Below, one piece after another: positions 2,191-59,006 of a DNA stretch of 64,000 nt. Source of the stretch: Pseudomonadaceae bacterium (lineage in GTDB: Bacteria > Pseudomonadota > Alphaproteobacteria > UBA2136 > UBA6156); assembly GCA_024236095.1 (NCBI GenBank), contig JACKLD010000013.1, forward strand, positions 142,368 to 206,367, written 5' to 3'. The position numbers and the translations under genes were made by a program. Every line of letters starts with the position of its first letter. The stretch's first letter is position 1. The notes under the pieces are model-generated. The model did no database searches. It was not told where the DNA came from and was given only the letters and a program-made list of their open reading frames with translations.

Positions 2191-2919
2191 TCACTTCACC
2201 ACCACGTTCGGCCCCTTGGCGCGCGCGTCCGCCAGCTTTTGGTCAATCTGGTACAACATGCCGGCCATGTCGGCGGCGGCGGGGTCGCCGCTTTGCACCA
2301 GCGCGCCCAGCATGGTCATCTTCACCTCGCCGAAGCTGAGCTTGTAGCTTTTATCAATGCCCTTGCGGATACGCTCGCCCAGTACCAGCGCGCCCTTGAT
2401 GTCGGTTTCGGGCAGCACTGCCATGATGGTGCGCTCGCCGGTGCGGCCCGCGCTGTCGGAATCACGGATGGCGCGCTTCACCACGCGGGCGGCTTCGGCC
2501 ACCAGCAGGTCCATGTCTTCCTGCGCGAAATGTTTGATGTCCGGGTTGCTGGTAAAGGGGTCAAGCTCGATGGCCAGCACGGTAAACGGGTTATCGTAGC
2601 GTCCGGCGCGTTGCAGCTCTTTCTCCAGCAGGTGGAACAGGTAACGGCGGCTGAACAGCTGGCTCACCTCGTCGTACGCCATCATGTCGCGCAGGTATTT
2701 TACGGCACTTTCCAGCGCCTTGCCGCTGCGCTCCAGCGTGATGACCAGGTCGGTGATCTTGGCCATCTCCTCGCGGCTGATGGAGATGTTGCCGTTGGAA
2801 AGCGTGAGTCGTACCTTGTTGGTTTTCACCCGGTTGATAAAGGTTTCCGCTTCCTCCAGCGAGGCTTCGATGTCGCGGATGGTGCGGATGTCGTGCAAAA
2901 TGCCGGGGGCGTCTTTCAT
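2191..2919 (-). CDS. Degenerate GGDEF-domain protein (GGEEF replaced by TGERT), likely a c-di-GMP receptor/regulator rather than a cyclase
   Basis: ORF 2191..3120; the GGDEF fold is recognisable (YDEVSQLFSRRYLFHLLEKELQRAGRYDNPFTVLAIELDPF...AGRTGERTIMAVLPETDIKGALVLGERIRKGID) but the catalytic motif is not conserved. Start chosen at ATG 2919 (MKDAPGILHD); in-frame ATGs at 3000 and 3120 are alternatives. Confidence 0.7.
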   Translation of the reverse strand: MKDAPGILHDIRTIRDIEASLEEAETFINRVKTNKVRLTLSNGNISISREEMAKITDLVITLERSGKALESAVKYLRDMMAYDEVSQLFSRRYLFHLLEKELQRAGRYDNPFTVLAIELDPFTSNPDIKHFAQEDMDLLVAEAARVVKRAIRDSDSAGRTGERTIMAVLPETDIKGALVLGERIRKGIDKSYKLSFGEVKMTMLGALVQSGDPAAADMAGMLYQIDQKLADARAKGPNVVVK

Positions 2920-3071
2920 GGCAGCGGGCGGGCCTTTTTGGTGCGGTTTTGTTGTTGCGCGGGGCTTTTTTGTCAGTATGGCCACGCAAATTGGCCGCAT
3001 TGTGCTACCGTGCACGCGGGGTGGCAAGCCCCCTTTGCGATTTTTCACAATCTTTTCATTGTTTCGCAACT

Positions 3072-3088
3072 TGGCACAGAGCGTGCAT
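3072..3088 (+). promoter_or_regulatory. Sigma54-type -24/-12 promoter (TGGCAC-agagc-GTGCA) upstream of flgFG
   Basis: GG at 3073-3074 and GC at 3085-3086 are 12 nt apart, matching the TGGCAC-N5-TTGCW consensus; it lies about 65 nt upstream of the flgF GTG. Confidence 0.5.
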
Positions 3089-3153
3089 TGCCTGTGCCAC
3101 AAGGGCGGTGCCGTGGGCACAGGCGCCTACGGCAACAACTAAGGAGACACCCC

Positions 3154-3882
3154 GTGCAAGAGCTCGCCATCCTCGCGTCCCGTGCGATGACCACGATGCG
3201 CAAGTTCAACGCGGTGAGCGACAACATTGCCAACATCAACACCGACGGCTACCGCCGCAAGGATTACGAGTTCAAGGAGCTGGTCAGCCGCCCCGACGGC
3301 ATCAACCCCACCGCCAGCTACGTGGGCGACCGCGCCGTGATTATCGATTACAGCGACGGCGTGCTCACCGAAACCGGCAACCCGTTCAATGCCGCCATTG
3401 GCGGCGAGGGCTTCTTTGCGGTGGACGTCAACGGCACCACCCAATACACCCGCCGCGGACATTTCCTGATGGCCACCGACGGCACGCTGGTGACGCCGGA
3501 GGGCCACCCCGTGCTGGATAACTCCGGCGGGCAGATCCAGCTGCCGCCCGACACCACGCAGGTGATTATCGGCCGCGACGGCAGCATTGCCACCGAACAG
3601 GGGCAAATCGGCCGTCTCGGCGTGTTTGGCTTCAGCGATGAGGACAAGGGCTTGCTGCAACGGGCCGGAAATACAGGGTTCATTCCCACCCAGGGTGCCA
3701 GTGCCCAGCCGTTGGAAAACCCGGTGGTCTACCAAGGCAAAATCGAGGCCAGCAACGTGAGCCCCGTCATGGAAATGGTGACCATGCAAGACGTCGCCCG
3801 TTCTTACCAAAGCGCGGTGCGTGCCTTGCGCGGGCTGGAAGACACCGAACAACGCGCCATCCGTACCTTGGCACCCCAATAA
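3154..3882 (+). CDS. flgF: Flagellar basal-body rod protein FlgF
   Basis: C-terminal 243 codons of listed ORF 2047..3882. It has rod-protein N- and C-terminal motifs (SDNIANINTDGYRR...VSPVMEMVTMQDVARSYQS). RBS aaggaga at 3141-3147 precedes GTG 3154. The 5' part of the long ORF is antisense shadow of the GGDEF gene. Confidence 0.85.
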   Translation: MQELAILASRAMTTMRKFNAVSDNIANINTDGYRRKDYEFKELVSRPDGINPTASYVGDRAVIIDYSDGVLTETGNPFNAAIGGEGFFAVDVNGTTQYTRRGHFLMATDGTLVTPEGHPVLDNSGGQIQLPPDTTQVIIGRDGSIATEQGQIGRLGVFGFSDEDKGLLQRAGNTGFIPTQGASAQPLENPVVYQGKIEASNVSPVMEMVTMQDVARSYQSAVRALRGLEDTEQRAIRTLAPQ

Positions 3883-3918
3883 CAACCATGAAGCATTGAG
3901 CGAAGGAGACCCAACCCC

Positions 3919-4701
3919 ATGATGCAAGCCCTGCGAATCGCCGCCACCGGGATGCACGCCCAGCAGCTGAACGTGGACGTGCTTTCCAACAACATCGCCA
4001 ACCTGAACACCACCGGCTTCAAACAGCAGATGACCGCGTTTGAAGACCTCATATATCTCAACAAGGTGGGGGTGGGTGCCATTACCAGCAGCGCAGGCAC
4101 GGTGTCGCCCACCGGTTTGCAAATCGGCTTGGGGGTGAATACCGGCAGCGTGTACAAGGTGATGCAACAAGGCACCCTGCTGAACACCGGCAACAACTTC
4201 GATATCGCCGTCTCCGGCCGTGGCTTCATGAAGGTGACCATGCCCGACGGCACCACCGCCTACACCCGCGACGGCTCGTTCCAGATCAACCAGGACGGCG
4301 ATCTGGTCACCAAGGAAGGCTATCTGGTGGACCCCGCCATCAACGTGCCCGCCAATGCGGTCGACTTCACCGTCACCGAAACCGGCGTGGCCTCGGCCAA
4401 CATCGATGGCACGGTGACCGAACTGGGCACCATCACGCTGGCGATGTTCACCAACGAGGCCGGGCTCCGCAACGTCGGTGATAACTTCTATGTGGAAACC
4501 GAAGCCAGCGGCACCCCCACCGACACCAACCCCACCGAGCAGGGCTCCGGCAGCATCCGCCAGGGGTTTTTGGAGCAAAGCAACGTCGACCCGATTGAAA
4601 GCATCACCCGCCTGATCACCGCCCAGCGCGCGTATGAGCTGAACAGCAAGATCATCACCACGGCCGATGAAATGCTGCGCACGCTCACGCAGGTGACCTG
4701 A
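3919..4701 (+). CDS. flgG: Flagellar basal-body rod protein FlgG
   Basis: 260 aa; MMQALRIAATGMHAQQLNVDVLSNNIANLNTTGFK...ITAQRAYELNSKIITTADEML; RBS gaaggaga upstream. Confidence 0.92.
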   Translation: MMQALRIAATGMHAQQLNVDVLSNNIANLNTTGFKQQMTAFEDLIYLNKVGVGAITSSAGTVSPTGLQIGLGVNTGSVYKVMQQGTLLNTGNNFDIAVSGRGFMKVTMPDGTTAYTRDGSFQINQDGDLVTKEGYLVDPAINVPANAVDFTVTETGVASANIDGTVTELGTITLAMFTNEAGLRNVGDNFYVETEASGTPTDTNPTEQGSGSIRQGFLEQSNVDPIESITRLITAQRAYELNSKIITTADEMLRTLTQVT

Positions 4702-4786: not shown

Positions 4787-5356
4787 TTGGCGGCCATGCA
4801 CCTCCTCGTCGGCCTCGGTAACCCGGGTAAAGAGTACCAAAACACCCGCCACAACATTGGCTGGATGGTGCTGGATGCCATCCACGATGCCCATGGTTTC
4901 CCACCATGGCAGGCCAAGTTCAAGGGGCAGTACAGCAAGCACACCGTGGAGGGCCACGGCGTGGTGCTTTTAAAACCCCATACCTACATGAACCTCTCCG
5001 GCCAAAGCGTGCAGCCAGCGGCTACCTTCTTCAAGATTGCCCCCGACCACATCACCGCCATCCACGATGAACTCGACCTGCCGTTCCTTGCCCTGCGCCA
5101 CAAAACCGGCGGCGGCGATGCCGGTCACAACGGCCTCAAGTCCATCACTGCGGCGCTGGGGCCCAATTACCACCGCCTGCGTATCGGCATCGGCCGCCCC
5201 GTGCATAAATCCGATGTCTCCAACTATGTCCTCCACCCCTTCACCGCCGCCGAGGCGCTGGAGGTCAGCCAAGCCACCACCCGCATTGCCGAACATTTAC
5301 CGCTATTGCTGGATGACCCCAAGGCATTGCTGGACAAATTGGCTGCAAACCAGTAA
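4787..5356 (+). CDS. pth: Peptidyl-tRNA hydrolase
   Basis: 189 aa; [25 protein letters not shown]...HNGLKSI; start may be the second ATG at 4796 ([11 protein letters not shown]). Confidence 0.92.
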
Positions 5357-12792: not shown

Positions 12793-12850
12793 CGTCATTC
12801 CCGCGAAAGCGGGAATCCAGCTTGTCTGGAACAACGCTTGCGTAATCCAG
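12793..12850 (+). repeat. dRS3/NIME-like intergenic repeat, copy 1: cgtcATTCCCgcgaaagcGGGAATccag (8-bp stem, GAAA loop) followed by ccagcttgtctggaacaacgcttgcgtaatccag
   Basis: ATTCCC-N8-GGGAAT at 12797-12816. The downstream 36-bp segment recurs at 18274-18309 with one mismatch, and bases 12793-12825 recur reverse-complemented at 35608-35640. Confidence 0.8.
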
Positions 12851-19841: not shown

Positions 19842-21002
<1,161 letters not shown>

Positions 21003-21016
21003 GAAGGGATGTGGCA

Positions 21017-21334
21017 ATGAAAGCATTGATATTGGTAATTAGCTCACTTGTAATTATTGGGTGTACGACTACGGAAACCACTCTTTTTACGATGGGGCCG
21101 AATGAGGCTGTTCGCGTGATGGAAGGAGACGGGAGTATCACGAGAGGGGCTGACGGCAAAGATGCATTTAGTTTTTATGCGCCTGCAGAATATATGAGTG
21201 ATGAGAAAAACATCAACGTCTCAGTTGGGAATTGGTTGGGTAAAAACGACTACTGTAAAAAAGGCTTTTTGATTAGTAAAATCGATAGAACAATGAGCAA
21301 AAGTTACGTTTTGGTAATGGGGAAATGTAAGTAG
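21017..21334 (+). CDS. Small lipoprotein (105 aa), strongly AT-rich relative to the genome; likely horizontally acquired
   Basis: [16 protein letters not shown] lipobox; about 40% GC versus roughly 60-65% for the window; lies between sucC and sucD. Confidence 0.55.
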
Positions 21335-21381
21335 TTAGTCCTACTAAGAAAGCCCGCCATGAACCCGATCCCCACCCCACC

Positions 21382-21519
21382 CCCGTCATTGCGAGGAGCA
21401 CGCGCCTCCGCTGCCGCAGAAGGCTCTGCCGGTTGTCGCGCGCGGACGCGGCAATCCATGCGCGGGTGCAGAGGTGGATTGCCGCGTCGGTCGCGTTGCG
21501 CCCTCCTCGCAATGACGGG
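21382..21519. mobile_element. MITE-like palindromic element, copy A (17-bp terminal inverted repeats cccgtcattgcgaggag / ctcctcgcaatgacggg plus an inner inverted repeat gcggcaatccat / gtggattgccgc)
   Basis: TIRs and inner IR read directly; related copy at 58769-58954 shares cgtcattgcgaggagcacgcgcc and cgcgcggacg(c/t)ggcaatccatgc. Confidence 0.75.
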
Positions 21520-21549
21520 GGTATTTGCAAATTGCGGAGGCAAGGGCTA

Positions 21550-21840
21550 ATGAAACAGGCTGCGACATACATCATGACCAACAAACCCAAAGGCACGCTT
21601 TACGTCGGCATGACCGGGCACTTTCCCGCCCGCATCCAACAACACCGTGAGGGTTCCGGGAGCGCCTTTTGCAAACGCTACGGCTTGGGCAAACTGGTTT
21701 GGTATGAATTGTTTGAGTTGGTAACAGATGCCATCCGGCAGGAAAAACAAATCAAAGCGGGCTCTCGCAAAGACAAAATTGCACTGATAGAATCCGTCAA
21801 CCCGAGATGGAACGACCTCTATCTAACCCTCAACGCTTAA
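21550..21840 (+). CDS. GIY-YIG nuclease-superfamily protein (YhbQ/Slx1-like, 96 aa)
   Basis: [29 protein letters not shown] is a canonical GIY-YIG motif; RBS ggagg; inside listed ORF 21433..21840. Confidence 0.8.
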
Positions 21841-21859
21841 CCTGAAAGAAAGAAAACCC

Positions 21860-22744
21860 ATGTCCATTTTCATCACCGAAGACACCAAAGTCATCACCCA
21901 GGGCTTTACCGGCAAGCACGGGACGTTCCATAGCGAACAGGCACTGAAATACGGCAGCCGTTACGTGGGCGGCGTCACCCCTGGCAAGGGCGGAACCGAG
22001 CACCTCGGCTTGCCGGTGTTCGATACCGTGGCTGAAGCGGTGGCTGCCACCGGTGCCGAAGCCAGCGTCATTTACGTGCCGCCGCCGTTTGCCGCCGACG
22101 CCATTTTGGAGGCCGAAGCCGCCGGCATCAAAATCTGCGTGTGCATCACCGAGGGCATCCCCGTGCTGGATATGGTGAAGGTGAAGCGCAAGCTGATGGA
22201 CCCCAAATGCACCATGCGGCTGATCGGCCCCAACTGCCCCGGCATCATTACCCCCGGCGAGGGCAAAGGCTGCAAAATCGGCATCATGCCCGCTTACATC
22301 CACAAAAAGGGCAAGGTGGGTGTGGTCTCCAAGTCCGGCACGCTTACCTATGAGGCGGTCAAGCAAACCACCGATGTCGGCCTTGGCCAATCCACCTGCG
22401 TGGGTATCGGTGGCGATCCTGTCCCCGGCACCAACTTCATTCAGGTGCTGGCGGCGTTCGAGGCCGACCCGCAAACCGAAGGCATCGTGCTCATCGGCGA
22501 AATCGGCGGCATGGCGGAAATCGAAGCAGCCGAGTATATCAAAAACGCCGTTACCAAGCCGGTAGTGGCCTTTATCGCCGGAGCCAGCGCACCCAAGGGC
22601 AAACGCATGGGACACGCGGGCGCCATTATTTCCGGAGGCGACGACACCGCCGCCGCCAAAATCGATGCGCTGAAAAAGGCGGGCGCCACCGTGGTGGCCA
22701 GCCCCTCCGATCTCGGCGCCGCGATGAAGCAGTTGCTGGGGTAA
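21860..22744 (+). CDS. sucD: Succinyl-CoA synthetase alpha subunit
   Basis: 294 aa; CoA-binding and phosphohistidine loop ([10 protein letters not shown]). Confidence 0.95.
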
Positions 22745-35477: not shown

Positions 35478-35607
35478 GATGCCCCTGCCTGCATAAGTGG
35501 AAACGGGGGTGCAGGGAGCGGAAGACCCCTGCCGCCGCAGGCGTCATCCCCGCCCCGTGTTTATGCCACACCACCCAAAGACGGACAGCGGGGATCCATT
35601 GCGGTGT

Positions 35608-35640
35608 CAAGCTGGATTCCCGCTTTCGCGGGAATGACGC
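35608..35640 (-). repeat. dRS3/NIME-like repeat, copy 3 (reverse complement of 12793-12825: caagctggATTCCCgctttcgcGGGAATgacgc)
   Basis: Exact 33-bp reverse-complement match. Confidence 0.8.
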
Positions 35641-58751: not shown

Positions 58752-58768
58752 GCAAGATAGCTTTTGCC

Positions 58769-58954
58769 CACGTCATTGCGAGGAGCACGCGCCCCTGCAG
58801 ATGCAGAAGCCCCCGCCATATTCCGCGCGCGGACGTGGCAATCCATGCAAGTGTTCCCAAAAACTAGATATCCCTATGTAAGATAGTCATGGATTGCTTC
58901 GTCGGTCGACAGGAAACCATGGCGCCTCCGGGGCGCTCGTCCTCGTAATGACGG
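58769..58954. mobile_element. MITE-like palindromic element, copy B (same termini as copy A; inner loop carries an about 45-bp AT-rich insertion)
   Basis: Termini cgtcattgcgaggagcacgcgcc ... gctcgtcctcgtaatgacgg; inner ggcaatccatg ... catggattgc. Confidence 0.7.
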
Positions 58955-59006
58955 AGACTGTTTGCATTTTGGCGATAAATGCAATGTGTTGAGGTGAGTC
59001 CGGCTA

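Follow-up and report, generated by a model that had tools for sequence, protein, structure and literature searches.

The sucC-sucD junction

This study concerns a 64,000-nucleotide stretch of a metagenome-assembled genome (MAG), contig JACKLD010000013.1, which we call the window, and within it the junction between sucC and sucD, the genes of the beta and alpha subunits of succinyl-CoA synthetase. The two genes are separated by 857 nucleotides that hold three features: a gene for a small lipoprotein, a long palindrome, and a gene for a GIY-YIG nuclease of 96 amino acids. A first-pass annotation, made from the sequence alone, had reported these three features, and all of them are present at the positions it gave. 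The nuclease and the palindrome resemble the Ssn nucleases of Neisseria and the hairpin repeats that these enzymes recognise.

The annotation was also right to call the separation unusual: over 79 related loci that contain both genes, the median spacing is 11 nucleotides, with 60 loci at 16 nucleotides or less and only four above 250. Table 1 gives the coordinates of all features. Both subunit genes are intact, and the product of sucC is recorded at NCBI as the beta subunit of an ADP-forming succinate--CoA ligase. Their GC content at third codon positions (GC3) is 0.80 for sucC and 0.78 for sucD, the GC content of the whole window being 0.609. The stop codon of the nuclease gene is followed by the start of sucD after 19 nucleotides. 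The four proteins of this locus (MCP5405298-MCP5405301) are singletons when clustered at 90% identity.

Table 1. Features of the window, and contents of the gap between sucC and sucD in related loci. Coordinates refer to the sequence named in the first column.
Sequence	Feature	Coordinates	Strand	Evidence or description
Window	Single 28-nt repeat CGTCATTCCCGCGAAAGCGGGAATCCAG	12793..12820	+	Exact fit to Neisseria NTS consensus; SRM pattern match
Window	sucC (succinyl-CoA synthetase beta subunit)	19842..21002	+	Intact open reading frame (ORF), 386 aa; ATP-grasp_2 3e-79, Ligase_CoA 2e-32 (Pfam)
Window	Orphan lipoprotein gene	21017..21334	+	105-aa ORF; signal peptide with lipobox IIGC
Window	Convergent pair (dimer) of CGTC-tagged REP repeats, Ssn-related hairpin repeats	21379..21522	.	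Arms, fold, consensus match
Window	Left repeat monomer	21384..21460	+	5' box CGTCATTGCGAGGAGC, 3' box GACGCGGCAATCCAT, insertion of about 45 nt between them
Window	Right repeat monomer, near-canonical length, CGTCATTGCGAGGAGGGCGCAACGCGACCGACGCGGCAATCCA	21474..21518	-	nhmmer long-monomer model end to end, E = 1.7e-6
Window	ssn-type gene, single-domain GIY-YIG nuclease, 96 aa	21550..21840	+	PF01541 E = 7e-12; predicted site-specific single-strand DNA endonuclease
Window	sucD (succinyl-CoA synthetase alpha subunit)	21860..22744	+	Intact ORF, 294 aa; Pfam CoA_binding and Ligase_CoA
Window	NTS-type repeat dimer	35541..35640	.	SRM pattern match, inverted repeats, sequence
Window	Second, longer dimer of the same repeat type as 21379..21522	58767..58955	.	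Motif search, alignment, inverted repeats, nhmmer
L001	Gap content	3611-3988		125-aa secreted DUF2059 protein
L002	Gap content	2838-3275		145-aa homologue of the L001 protein (40% identity) at these coordinates; the gap also has a DUF805 membrane protein
L003	Gap content	3672-3986		Unrelated 104-aa lipoprotein, GC equal to that of its genome
L051	Gap content			728-aa gene, opposite strand
Luteimonas/Lysobacter loci (several)	Gap content			REP-like palindromes

A nuclease resembling SsnA

The nuclease gene is preceded by a GGAGG motif nine nucleotides 5' of its ATG. The PF01541 domain spans residues 5-74 of the product, and no other domain was found. A database search returns 677 homologues, nearly all of them single-domain proteins of 94-100 amino acids, many from Sphingomonadales and Bradyrhizobiaceae. 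An alignment of 28 homologues has 24 invariant columns, all of which are kept in the window protein, with the two tyrosines, R28, E65 and N84 of the GIY-YIG catalytic core among them; each of the residues Y7, Y18, G20, R28, H32, E65 and N84 occupies a column that is invariant or nearly so. The AlphaFold model (pLDDT 93.5) is one compact domain with the GIY-YIG fold, whose best neighbours in the PDB, with weak scores, are BH0048 (1zg2), Slx1 (7cq3) and the N-terminal domain of UvrC (1ycz).

The closest known system is that of SsnA of Neisseria meningitidis (NMV_0044/NMB0047), a 94-amino-acid single-domain GIY-YIG protein assigned to cd10448 in CDD (Chenal 2025, Nat Commun, PMC11893778). SsnA binds the NTS hairpin repeat CGTCATTCCCGCGMAVGCGGGAATCYRG in single-stranded DNA only and cuts just upstream of it; it acts neither on the opposite strand nor on RNA or duplex DNA. 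In Neisseria it restricts incoming transforming single strands (PMC11893778). A Wolbachia Ssn enzyme has also been characterised. Repeats described by a degenerate SRM pattern lie near 71% of Ssn homologues (PMC11893778).

A tblastn search of 7.3 Gb with the window nuclease finds, with E = 4e-16, an ORF of 94 amino acids in Neisseria gonorrhoeae. The two proteins are 42% identical over 92 amino acids, ungapped, with a pairwise E of 9e-26; both values are well below 1e-10, the limit used by Chenal 2025 for similarity to Neisseria SsnA. NTS repeats lie on both sides of the gonococcal ORF, which gives it the repeat-gene-repeat layout published for SsnA, with 9 matches to the SRM pattern in 3.3 kb, and this locus served as the positive control for the pattern. 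We take the ORF to be the ssnA orthologue and, on the strength of the likeness, we take the window nuclease to be a member of the Ssn family. The gonococcal records L169 (NZ_CP119140.1) and NZ_CP119142.1, of 2.17 Mb, are evident chromosomes filed as plasmids, and are almost unannotated.

Two other assignments were considered. The first-pass annotation had called the protein a GIY-YIG nuclease, which stands, of the YhbQ/Slx1-like kind, which does not. UPF0213/YhbQ proteins and Slx1 share the fold and the catalytic core of the window nuclease; Slx1 itself is a nuclease built of several domains, with specificity for branched DNA structures. Membership in UPF0213/YhbQ was rejected: phmmer gives E = 2e-4 for 1zg2 and 0.13 for 1ywl, and Foldseek gives 26% identity to 1zg2, against the 42% to the gonococcal SsnA-type protein. 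A GIY-YIG homing endonuclease of the I-TevI or Seg types was also rejected, the protein being a single domain without a DNA-binding domain and scoring 16.5 bits against TIGR01453, whose cut-off is 56; such enzymes lie in introns or stand free in phage genomes, and an Rfam search found no intron RNA family.

A convergent repeat dimer upstream of the nuclease gene

Repetitive extragenic palindromes (REPs) tagged with CGTC, which include dRS3 of Neisseria and RPE-4 and RPE-6 of Rickettsia, have a 5' CGTC tag, a stem that starts with AT, and a CCA tail, the stem measuring 8-9 bp and the loop 4-5 nucleotides (Di Nocera 2013, BMC Genomics, PMC3733652). They are for the most part paired into inverted dimers whose spacers measure 20-100 bp, predominate in Alphaproteobacteria, and are intergenic, between co-directional genes (PMC3733652).

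The palindrome of the sucC-sucD gap shares most of these traits: a CGTC tag, an AT stem start, a CCA tail, the tag being unpaired, and the arrangement as an inverted dimer. The annotation had described it as a 138-bp element (21382-21519) with 17-bp terminal inverted repeats. The inverted-repeat ends are there, but the element is slightly larger: its outer arms, 21379-21403 and 21498-21522, are 25 nucleotides long and 92% complementary. A second, inner inverted repeat is perfect over 14 nucleotides (21445-21458 / 21475-21488). The CGTC tags, at 21384-21387 (+) and 21514-21517 (-), face outward, and the GCAATCCA tails, at 21451-21458 (+) and 21475-21482 (-), face inward. The GC content of the element is 0.71 overall. 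Folded as single-stranded DNA it reaches -62.6 kcal/mol (z = -8.0), and none of 200 shuffled sequences is as stable. Its 19-nucleotide end motif occurs three times in the window, where 0.02 occurrences are expected by chance.

The repeat is of the ATTGCGAG(G) type, also written ATTGCGAGG-type, and it agrees with the repeat consensus built from the homologue loci of the next section. In the nhmmer model of the long monomer, the left monomer is split: 21382-21399 aligns to model positions 2-19 (E = 1.3e-4) and 21445-21460 to positions 25-40. The pairing within each monomer is only 5 bp (ATTGC/GCAAT), so that stable folding needs the dimer; the stem of 8-9 bp and the loop of 4-5 nucleotides per unit, typical of CGTC-tagged REPs, are absent from both monomers.

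Rfam has no match to the whole window at gathering thresholds, nor to 20900-21950 at E <= 1, and the element is thus not a described RNA family. A blastn search of the 857-nucleotide insert against plasmids gave no match. The spacer 21332-21382 is no more similar to the stretch that precedes sucD, whether that of the window or those of the related loci L001-L003, than shuffled sequences are (80-985 of 1000 score as high).

Nuclease and repeat recur together

If the nuclease and the dimer are functional partners, as the annotation had proposed, the repeat should be found beside other copies of the gene. We searched for the 11-nucleotide core GTCATTGCGAG, with at most one mismatch, in 83 fetched loci (L081-L083 and metagenome loci L084-L163) whose nuclease homologues are 51-62% identical to the window protein. 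The core lies within 300 nucleotides of the nuclease gene in 82 of the 83 loci, and on both sides of it in 70. It is found 6.54 times per kb at up to 300 nucleotides from the gene and 0.19 times per kb at greater distances, a 34-fold difference, and it never occurs inside the gene. Together with the published association between Ssn nucleases and repeats, this pairing bears out the proposal.

The commonest layout, found in 18 loci, is a gene between two inverted pairs; next, in nine loci of which L083 is an example, comes a gene with a single repeat on either flank, facing outward. The dominant forms of the monomer are CGTCATTGCGAGCGnAGCGAAGCAATCCA, with 107 copies, and CGTCATTGCGAGGAGCGaAGcGACGaaGCAATCCA, with 89. 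In the window, the dimer lies 27 nucleotides 5' of the nuclease gene, and the core of the right monomer 44 nucleotides 5' of the start codon, against a median of 42 nucleotides in the 83 loci.

The published SRM pattern, as implemented here, matches only one of these 83 loci, and the ATTGCGAG type therefore escapes it. Consequently, this class of repeats is probably under-counted in the published association figures.

Other repeats in the window

In the 64 kb of the window, the repeats lie in intergenic DNA throughout: two ATTGCGAG-type dimers, an NTS-type dimer and a lone NTS-type unit. The second ATTGCGAG-type dimer, at 58767-58955, is located 3' of a ferredoxin-like gene, without an adjacent nuclease gene. 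It agrees with the dimer at 21379-21522 with a mean column identity of 75%, the end boxes and inner boxes being conserved, and its left monomer (58770-58847) is split in the same way as the left monomer at 21384-21460. A tblastn search of the window finds no second gene for a GIY-YIG homologue, and neither copy of the dimer was seen to have, next to it, a transposase gene with matching ends.

The SRM pattern, as implemented here, has two matches in the window, both to the 28-mer CGTCATTCCCGCGAAAGCGGGAATCCAG, at 12793 (+) and 35612 (-). The unit at 12793 folds into a stem of 8 bp with a loop of four nucleotides (z = -3.05), as a CGTC-tagged REP should. The dimer at 35541-35640 combines an exact copy of the 28-mer at 35612-35639 (-) with a degenerate partner, at 35541-35598 (+), whose loop is expanded. 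Both 28-mers fit the CGTC-tagged REPs of Di Nocera 2013, in which they differ from the monomers of 21379-21522 with their 5-bp pairing. Both also fit exactly the NTS consensus of Neisseria meningitidis, in a distantly related, alphaproteobacterial-like MAG.

A short motif, T(A/G)TTTGCA, is found 3' of both long dimers, at 21523-21532 and 58961-58968. The copy at the sucCD locus is a perfect palindrome of ten nucleotides, ATTTGCAAAT, 18-27 nucleotides before the start codon of the ssn gene; the letters TTTGCA also occur six nucleotides 5' of the CGTC tag at 12793.

The lipoprotein gene

The first-pass annotation gave the lipoprotein gene a GC content of about 40%. The measured value is 0.406, which makes this ORF the lowest-GC stretch of 318 nucleotides in all 64 kb (z = -4.7). 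A Shine-Dalgarno-like AAGGGA lies seven nucleotides 5' of the ATG. GC3 is 0.44 for this gene, and 0.62 for the nuclease gene.

A homology search for the lipoprotein, which the annotation had recommended, leaves it an orphan. It has no family in Pfam or NCBIfam; among 5.8 billion protein clusters, its sole match at E <= 10 is itself; no relatives were found in viral contigs, and none is encoded in the 169 fetched loci, 88 of which have a nuclease homologue. Compared by BLASTP with the lipoprotein that occupies the same position in L003, it gives E = 0.63. Its AlphaFold model, computed from the single sequence without an alignment, has a pLDDT of 53.6 and is not usable.

The junction in related genomes

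The nearest relatives of SucD are those of L001 (91%) and L002 (86%), two MAGs labelled Alphaproteobacteria, followed by L003 (73%), a Magnetococcales MAG. Since SucC and SucD are closest to proteins of Alphaproteobacteria MAGs and then of Magnetococcales, the label of the window's own MAG, Pseudomonadaceae bacterium, is doubtful and looks wrong. Synteny upstream of sucC is shared with L001 and L003.

The annotation had suggested looking for an empty site in such relatives. The search was negative: in the closest relatives the gap is occupied by other genes (Table 1), and none of these loci has an ssn homologue or a ATTGCGAG core. It had also held that the content of the gap is not ancestral in its present form, and here the comparison agrees with it. 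As the genes in the gap differ from one relative to the next, the tight coupling of sucC and sucD must have been lost before the arrangement of the window arose, and the cargo has been exchanged. In this lineage the sucC-sucD junction is a tolerated, variable slot.

A small exported protein of 104-145 amino acids is encoded between sucC and sucD in the window, L001, L002 and L003. These four proteins belong to at least three unrelated families, namely DUF2059 and one for each of the two orphan lipoproteins; what is conserved is the position, while the sequence has turned over. Four loci of Xanthomonadales (L006, L007, L009 and L027, from Luteimonas, Lysobacter and Agrilutibacter) have, at about 3830-4000, a spacer of 150-210 nucleotides with GC-rich REP-like palindromes such as CTTCTCCCGCGCGCGGGAGAAGG. 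In L001, a repeat that has the CGTC tag and an expanded loop (CGTCATTCCAGCGACGGAAACC...GGTGGAATC) is present at 4950-5000 (-), just 3' of sucD, so that CGTC repeats are present near this operon in the closest relative too.

Expression of sucD

The annotation had assumed that sucD must be re-expressed from within the insert. A promoter and terminator scan found no promoter-like or terminator-like site on the + strand of the insert, which gives this assumption no support, although the scan is a weak test; it has little power, since it detected no promoter upstream of sucC either. No T-run satisfying the scan follows the hairpin of 21379-21522. The final 15 nucleotides or so before the sucD ATG are similar to those of L002, and sucD has kept its own ribosome-binding region. 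Most likely, transcription that starts ahead of sucC still reaches sucD by reading through both inserts; sucD would then be translated from its own conserved ribosome-binding site.

Interpretation

It is thus natural to conjecture that the gap holds two things of separate origin: a module formed by an Ssn nuclease and its cognate CGTC-tagged repeat (21379-21840), and an unrelated orphan lipoprotein gene of foreign composition. We consider this reading quite likely. Homology and context identify the nuclease and the adjacent dimer as an enzyme of the Ssn type with its cognate repeat. As in the Neisseria system, a single-domain GIY-YIG protein of about 95 amino acids is encoded next to an inverted pair of hairpin repeats with the shared frame CGTCATT...AATCC(A), and further repeats lie elsewhere in the window, two of which fit the NTS consensus exactly. 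Contrary to that system, the partner repeat is of the ATTGCGAG(G) type and is missed by the SRM pattern, its monomers are weak hairpins, the left one carrying the insertion of about 45 nucleotides, the repeat is present only 5' of the gene, and the gene sits inside an essential operon. The Ssn nuclease/repeat system itself is known; its placement inside sucCD and a repeat subtype missed by the published pattern are the unusual traits.

By analogy with SsnA, the window nuclease would bind the repeat only as single-stranded DNA, as exposed by replication, repair or DNA uptake, and neither RNA nor duplex DNA would be a substrate. The predicted cuts lie a few nucleotides 5' of CGTC, just to the left of 21384 on the + strand and just to the right of 21517 on the - strand. 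Repeats elsewhere in the genome, such as 58767-58955, may be further targets. The orphan lipoprotein gene would simply sit where the nearest relatives have other genes for small exported proteins.

Several points weigh against this reading. No repeat was found 3' of the nuclease gene, whereas 70 of the 83 homologue loci have repeats on both sides: of the usual arrangement, repeat-gene-repeat, the upstream half alone is present in the window. Taken alone, the monomers of the element fold no better than shuffled sequences (z = 0.44 and -0.57), unlike the Neisseria repeat, and the published degenerate SRM pattern has no match to 21379-21522. The gonococcal ORF was judged to be the ssnA orthologue by its length and its flanking repeats, not by an accession. 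That the lipoprotein gene and the module arrived separately is deduced only from how they differ in composition and distribution. On the side of expression, the scan that detects no promoter in the insert detects none for sucC either. Finally, the sequence is known only as an assembled MAG.

Does the module move?

The most serious competing account, which we regard as possible but improbable, is that the Ssn module is an autonomous single-strand DNA transposon, similar to an insertion sequence (IS), with the nuclease as its transposase and the dimers as non-autonomous derivatives, and that the copy at sucCD is recent. The model for it is the pairing of REPs and REPINs with the RAYT (TnpA-REP) tyrosine transposases: there too, short palindromes occur in many copies, often as inverted pairs, and one small gene flanked by repeats encodes a nuclease that recognises single-stranded hairpins. 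However, RAYTs are HUH/Y1 enzymes acting on repeats tagged with GTAG, and Ssn proteins are GIY-YIG enzymes associated with CGTC; transposition by Ssn would be an extrapolation by analogy.

The distribution of the module offers some encouragement. It is absent from the orthologous junction in L001 and L002, and the nine loci in which the gene is enclosed by one outward-facing repeat on each side, L083 among them, have the look of an IS. In the pairs L143/L156, L157/L162 and L131/L138, the genes are 86-93% identical, and homology ends at the repeats or just outside them, the flanks being unrelated; yet other pairs of loci of similar identity keep their flanks. In the pair L131/L138, the modules are 87% identical, and the segment downstream of the module in L131 is found upstream, inverted, in L138. 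This last arrangement suggests an inversion or relocation bounded by repeats.

Other observations fit a resident gene better. The homologue P0112 is in one gene context on all 14 contigs on which it is recorded, and because of this it looks like a stable single-copy gene. Two copies in one locus were never seen within flanks of 1.5-3 kb, and neither the module nor the dimer of the window has a target-site duplication or another insertion signature around it. Since the downstream repeat is missing, excision of the window copy as a repeat-bounded unit would be impossible, which also counts against a transposon. The chemistry is a further obstacle: GIY-YIG enzymes cut DNA, and to our knowledge none is known to rejoin it or to transfer strands.

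The idea that Ssn enzymes mobilise their repeats was raised as a hypothesis by Chenal et al. (PMC11893778), and it would supply what Di Nocera et al. found wanting in CGTC-tagged REPs, "apparently lacking a dedicated transposase" (PMC3733652). In its general form, a GIY-YIG single-strand nuclease would mobilise CGTC-tagged REPs as RAYTs are thought to do for GTAG REPs, would constitute a new mechanistic class, and would have produced the sucCD copy by insertion; this too we hold to be rather unlikely. If the module were mobile in this way, the ATTGCGAG-type repeats would form the main alphaproteobacterial branch of the system.

The proposal of the first-pass annotation was different: a single foreign cassette of lipoprotein gene, MITE (a miniature transposable element with inverted repeats at its ends) and nuclease gene, brought in as a unit by homing or transposition and splitting the operon. 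This reading takes its appeal from three facts, namely that the three parts are found together in a gap normally of about 11 nucleotides, that both genes deviate from the codon composition of the host, and that none of the parts is present at this site in the relatives. But the parts are neither alike nor inseparable. Their compositions differ, with GC3 of 0.44 and 0.62 for the two genes and a GC of 0.71 for the element; the nuclease and its repeat are found together in 82 of 83 unrelated contexts, none of them with this lipoprotein, relatives of which are encoded in none of the 169 loci; and the dimer also stands alone, at 58767-58955. This is why we do not regard the gap as one cassette. Moreover, the lipoprotein gene fits a slot that existed already, the relatives having a small exported-protein gene there. 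The mapping of target-site duplications that the annotation had advised found no direct repeats bounding either the insert, 21003-21859, or the dimer. The terms MITE and homing insertion lose their footing likewise, for lack of a related transposase, of the additional DNA-binding domain of a homing endonuclease, and of an empty site in relatives. We consider the single cassette very unlikely.

An assembly artefact, in which a chimeric contig joins a low-GC segment or a repeat from another organism or locus, is the least probable explanation of all: a MAG, a REP dimer of the sort that can cause mis-joins, and a lipoprotein segment that is a strong compositional outlier would all invite it, but the two flanks are the halves of a single operon, correctly ordered and oriented, and the synteny upstream is kept, none of which a random mis-join would recreate; the low-GC stretch is taken up by an intact ORF complete with signal peptide and ribosome-binding site, and independent assemblies of relatives also hold genes in the gap.

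Significance

What had been a hypothetical GIY-YIG nuclease next to an unexplained palindrome becomes, with the family corrected from YhbQ/Slx1 to Ssn, one known functional pair. The sucCD locus, with different cargo in each close relative, is a defined place in which to ask whether such modules move, and the long hairpin inside the operon allows a test of its effect on the balance between the two subunits. Pairs of Ssn enzymes and their sites are also of practical interest as tools for cutting single-stranded DNA. For the family as a whole, the published association of 71% may be an underestimate, and a large set of alphaproteobacterial enzymes and sites is still uncharted.

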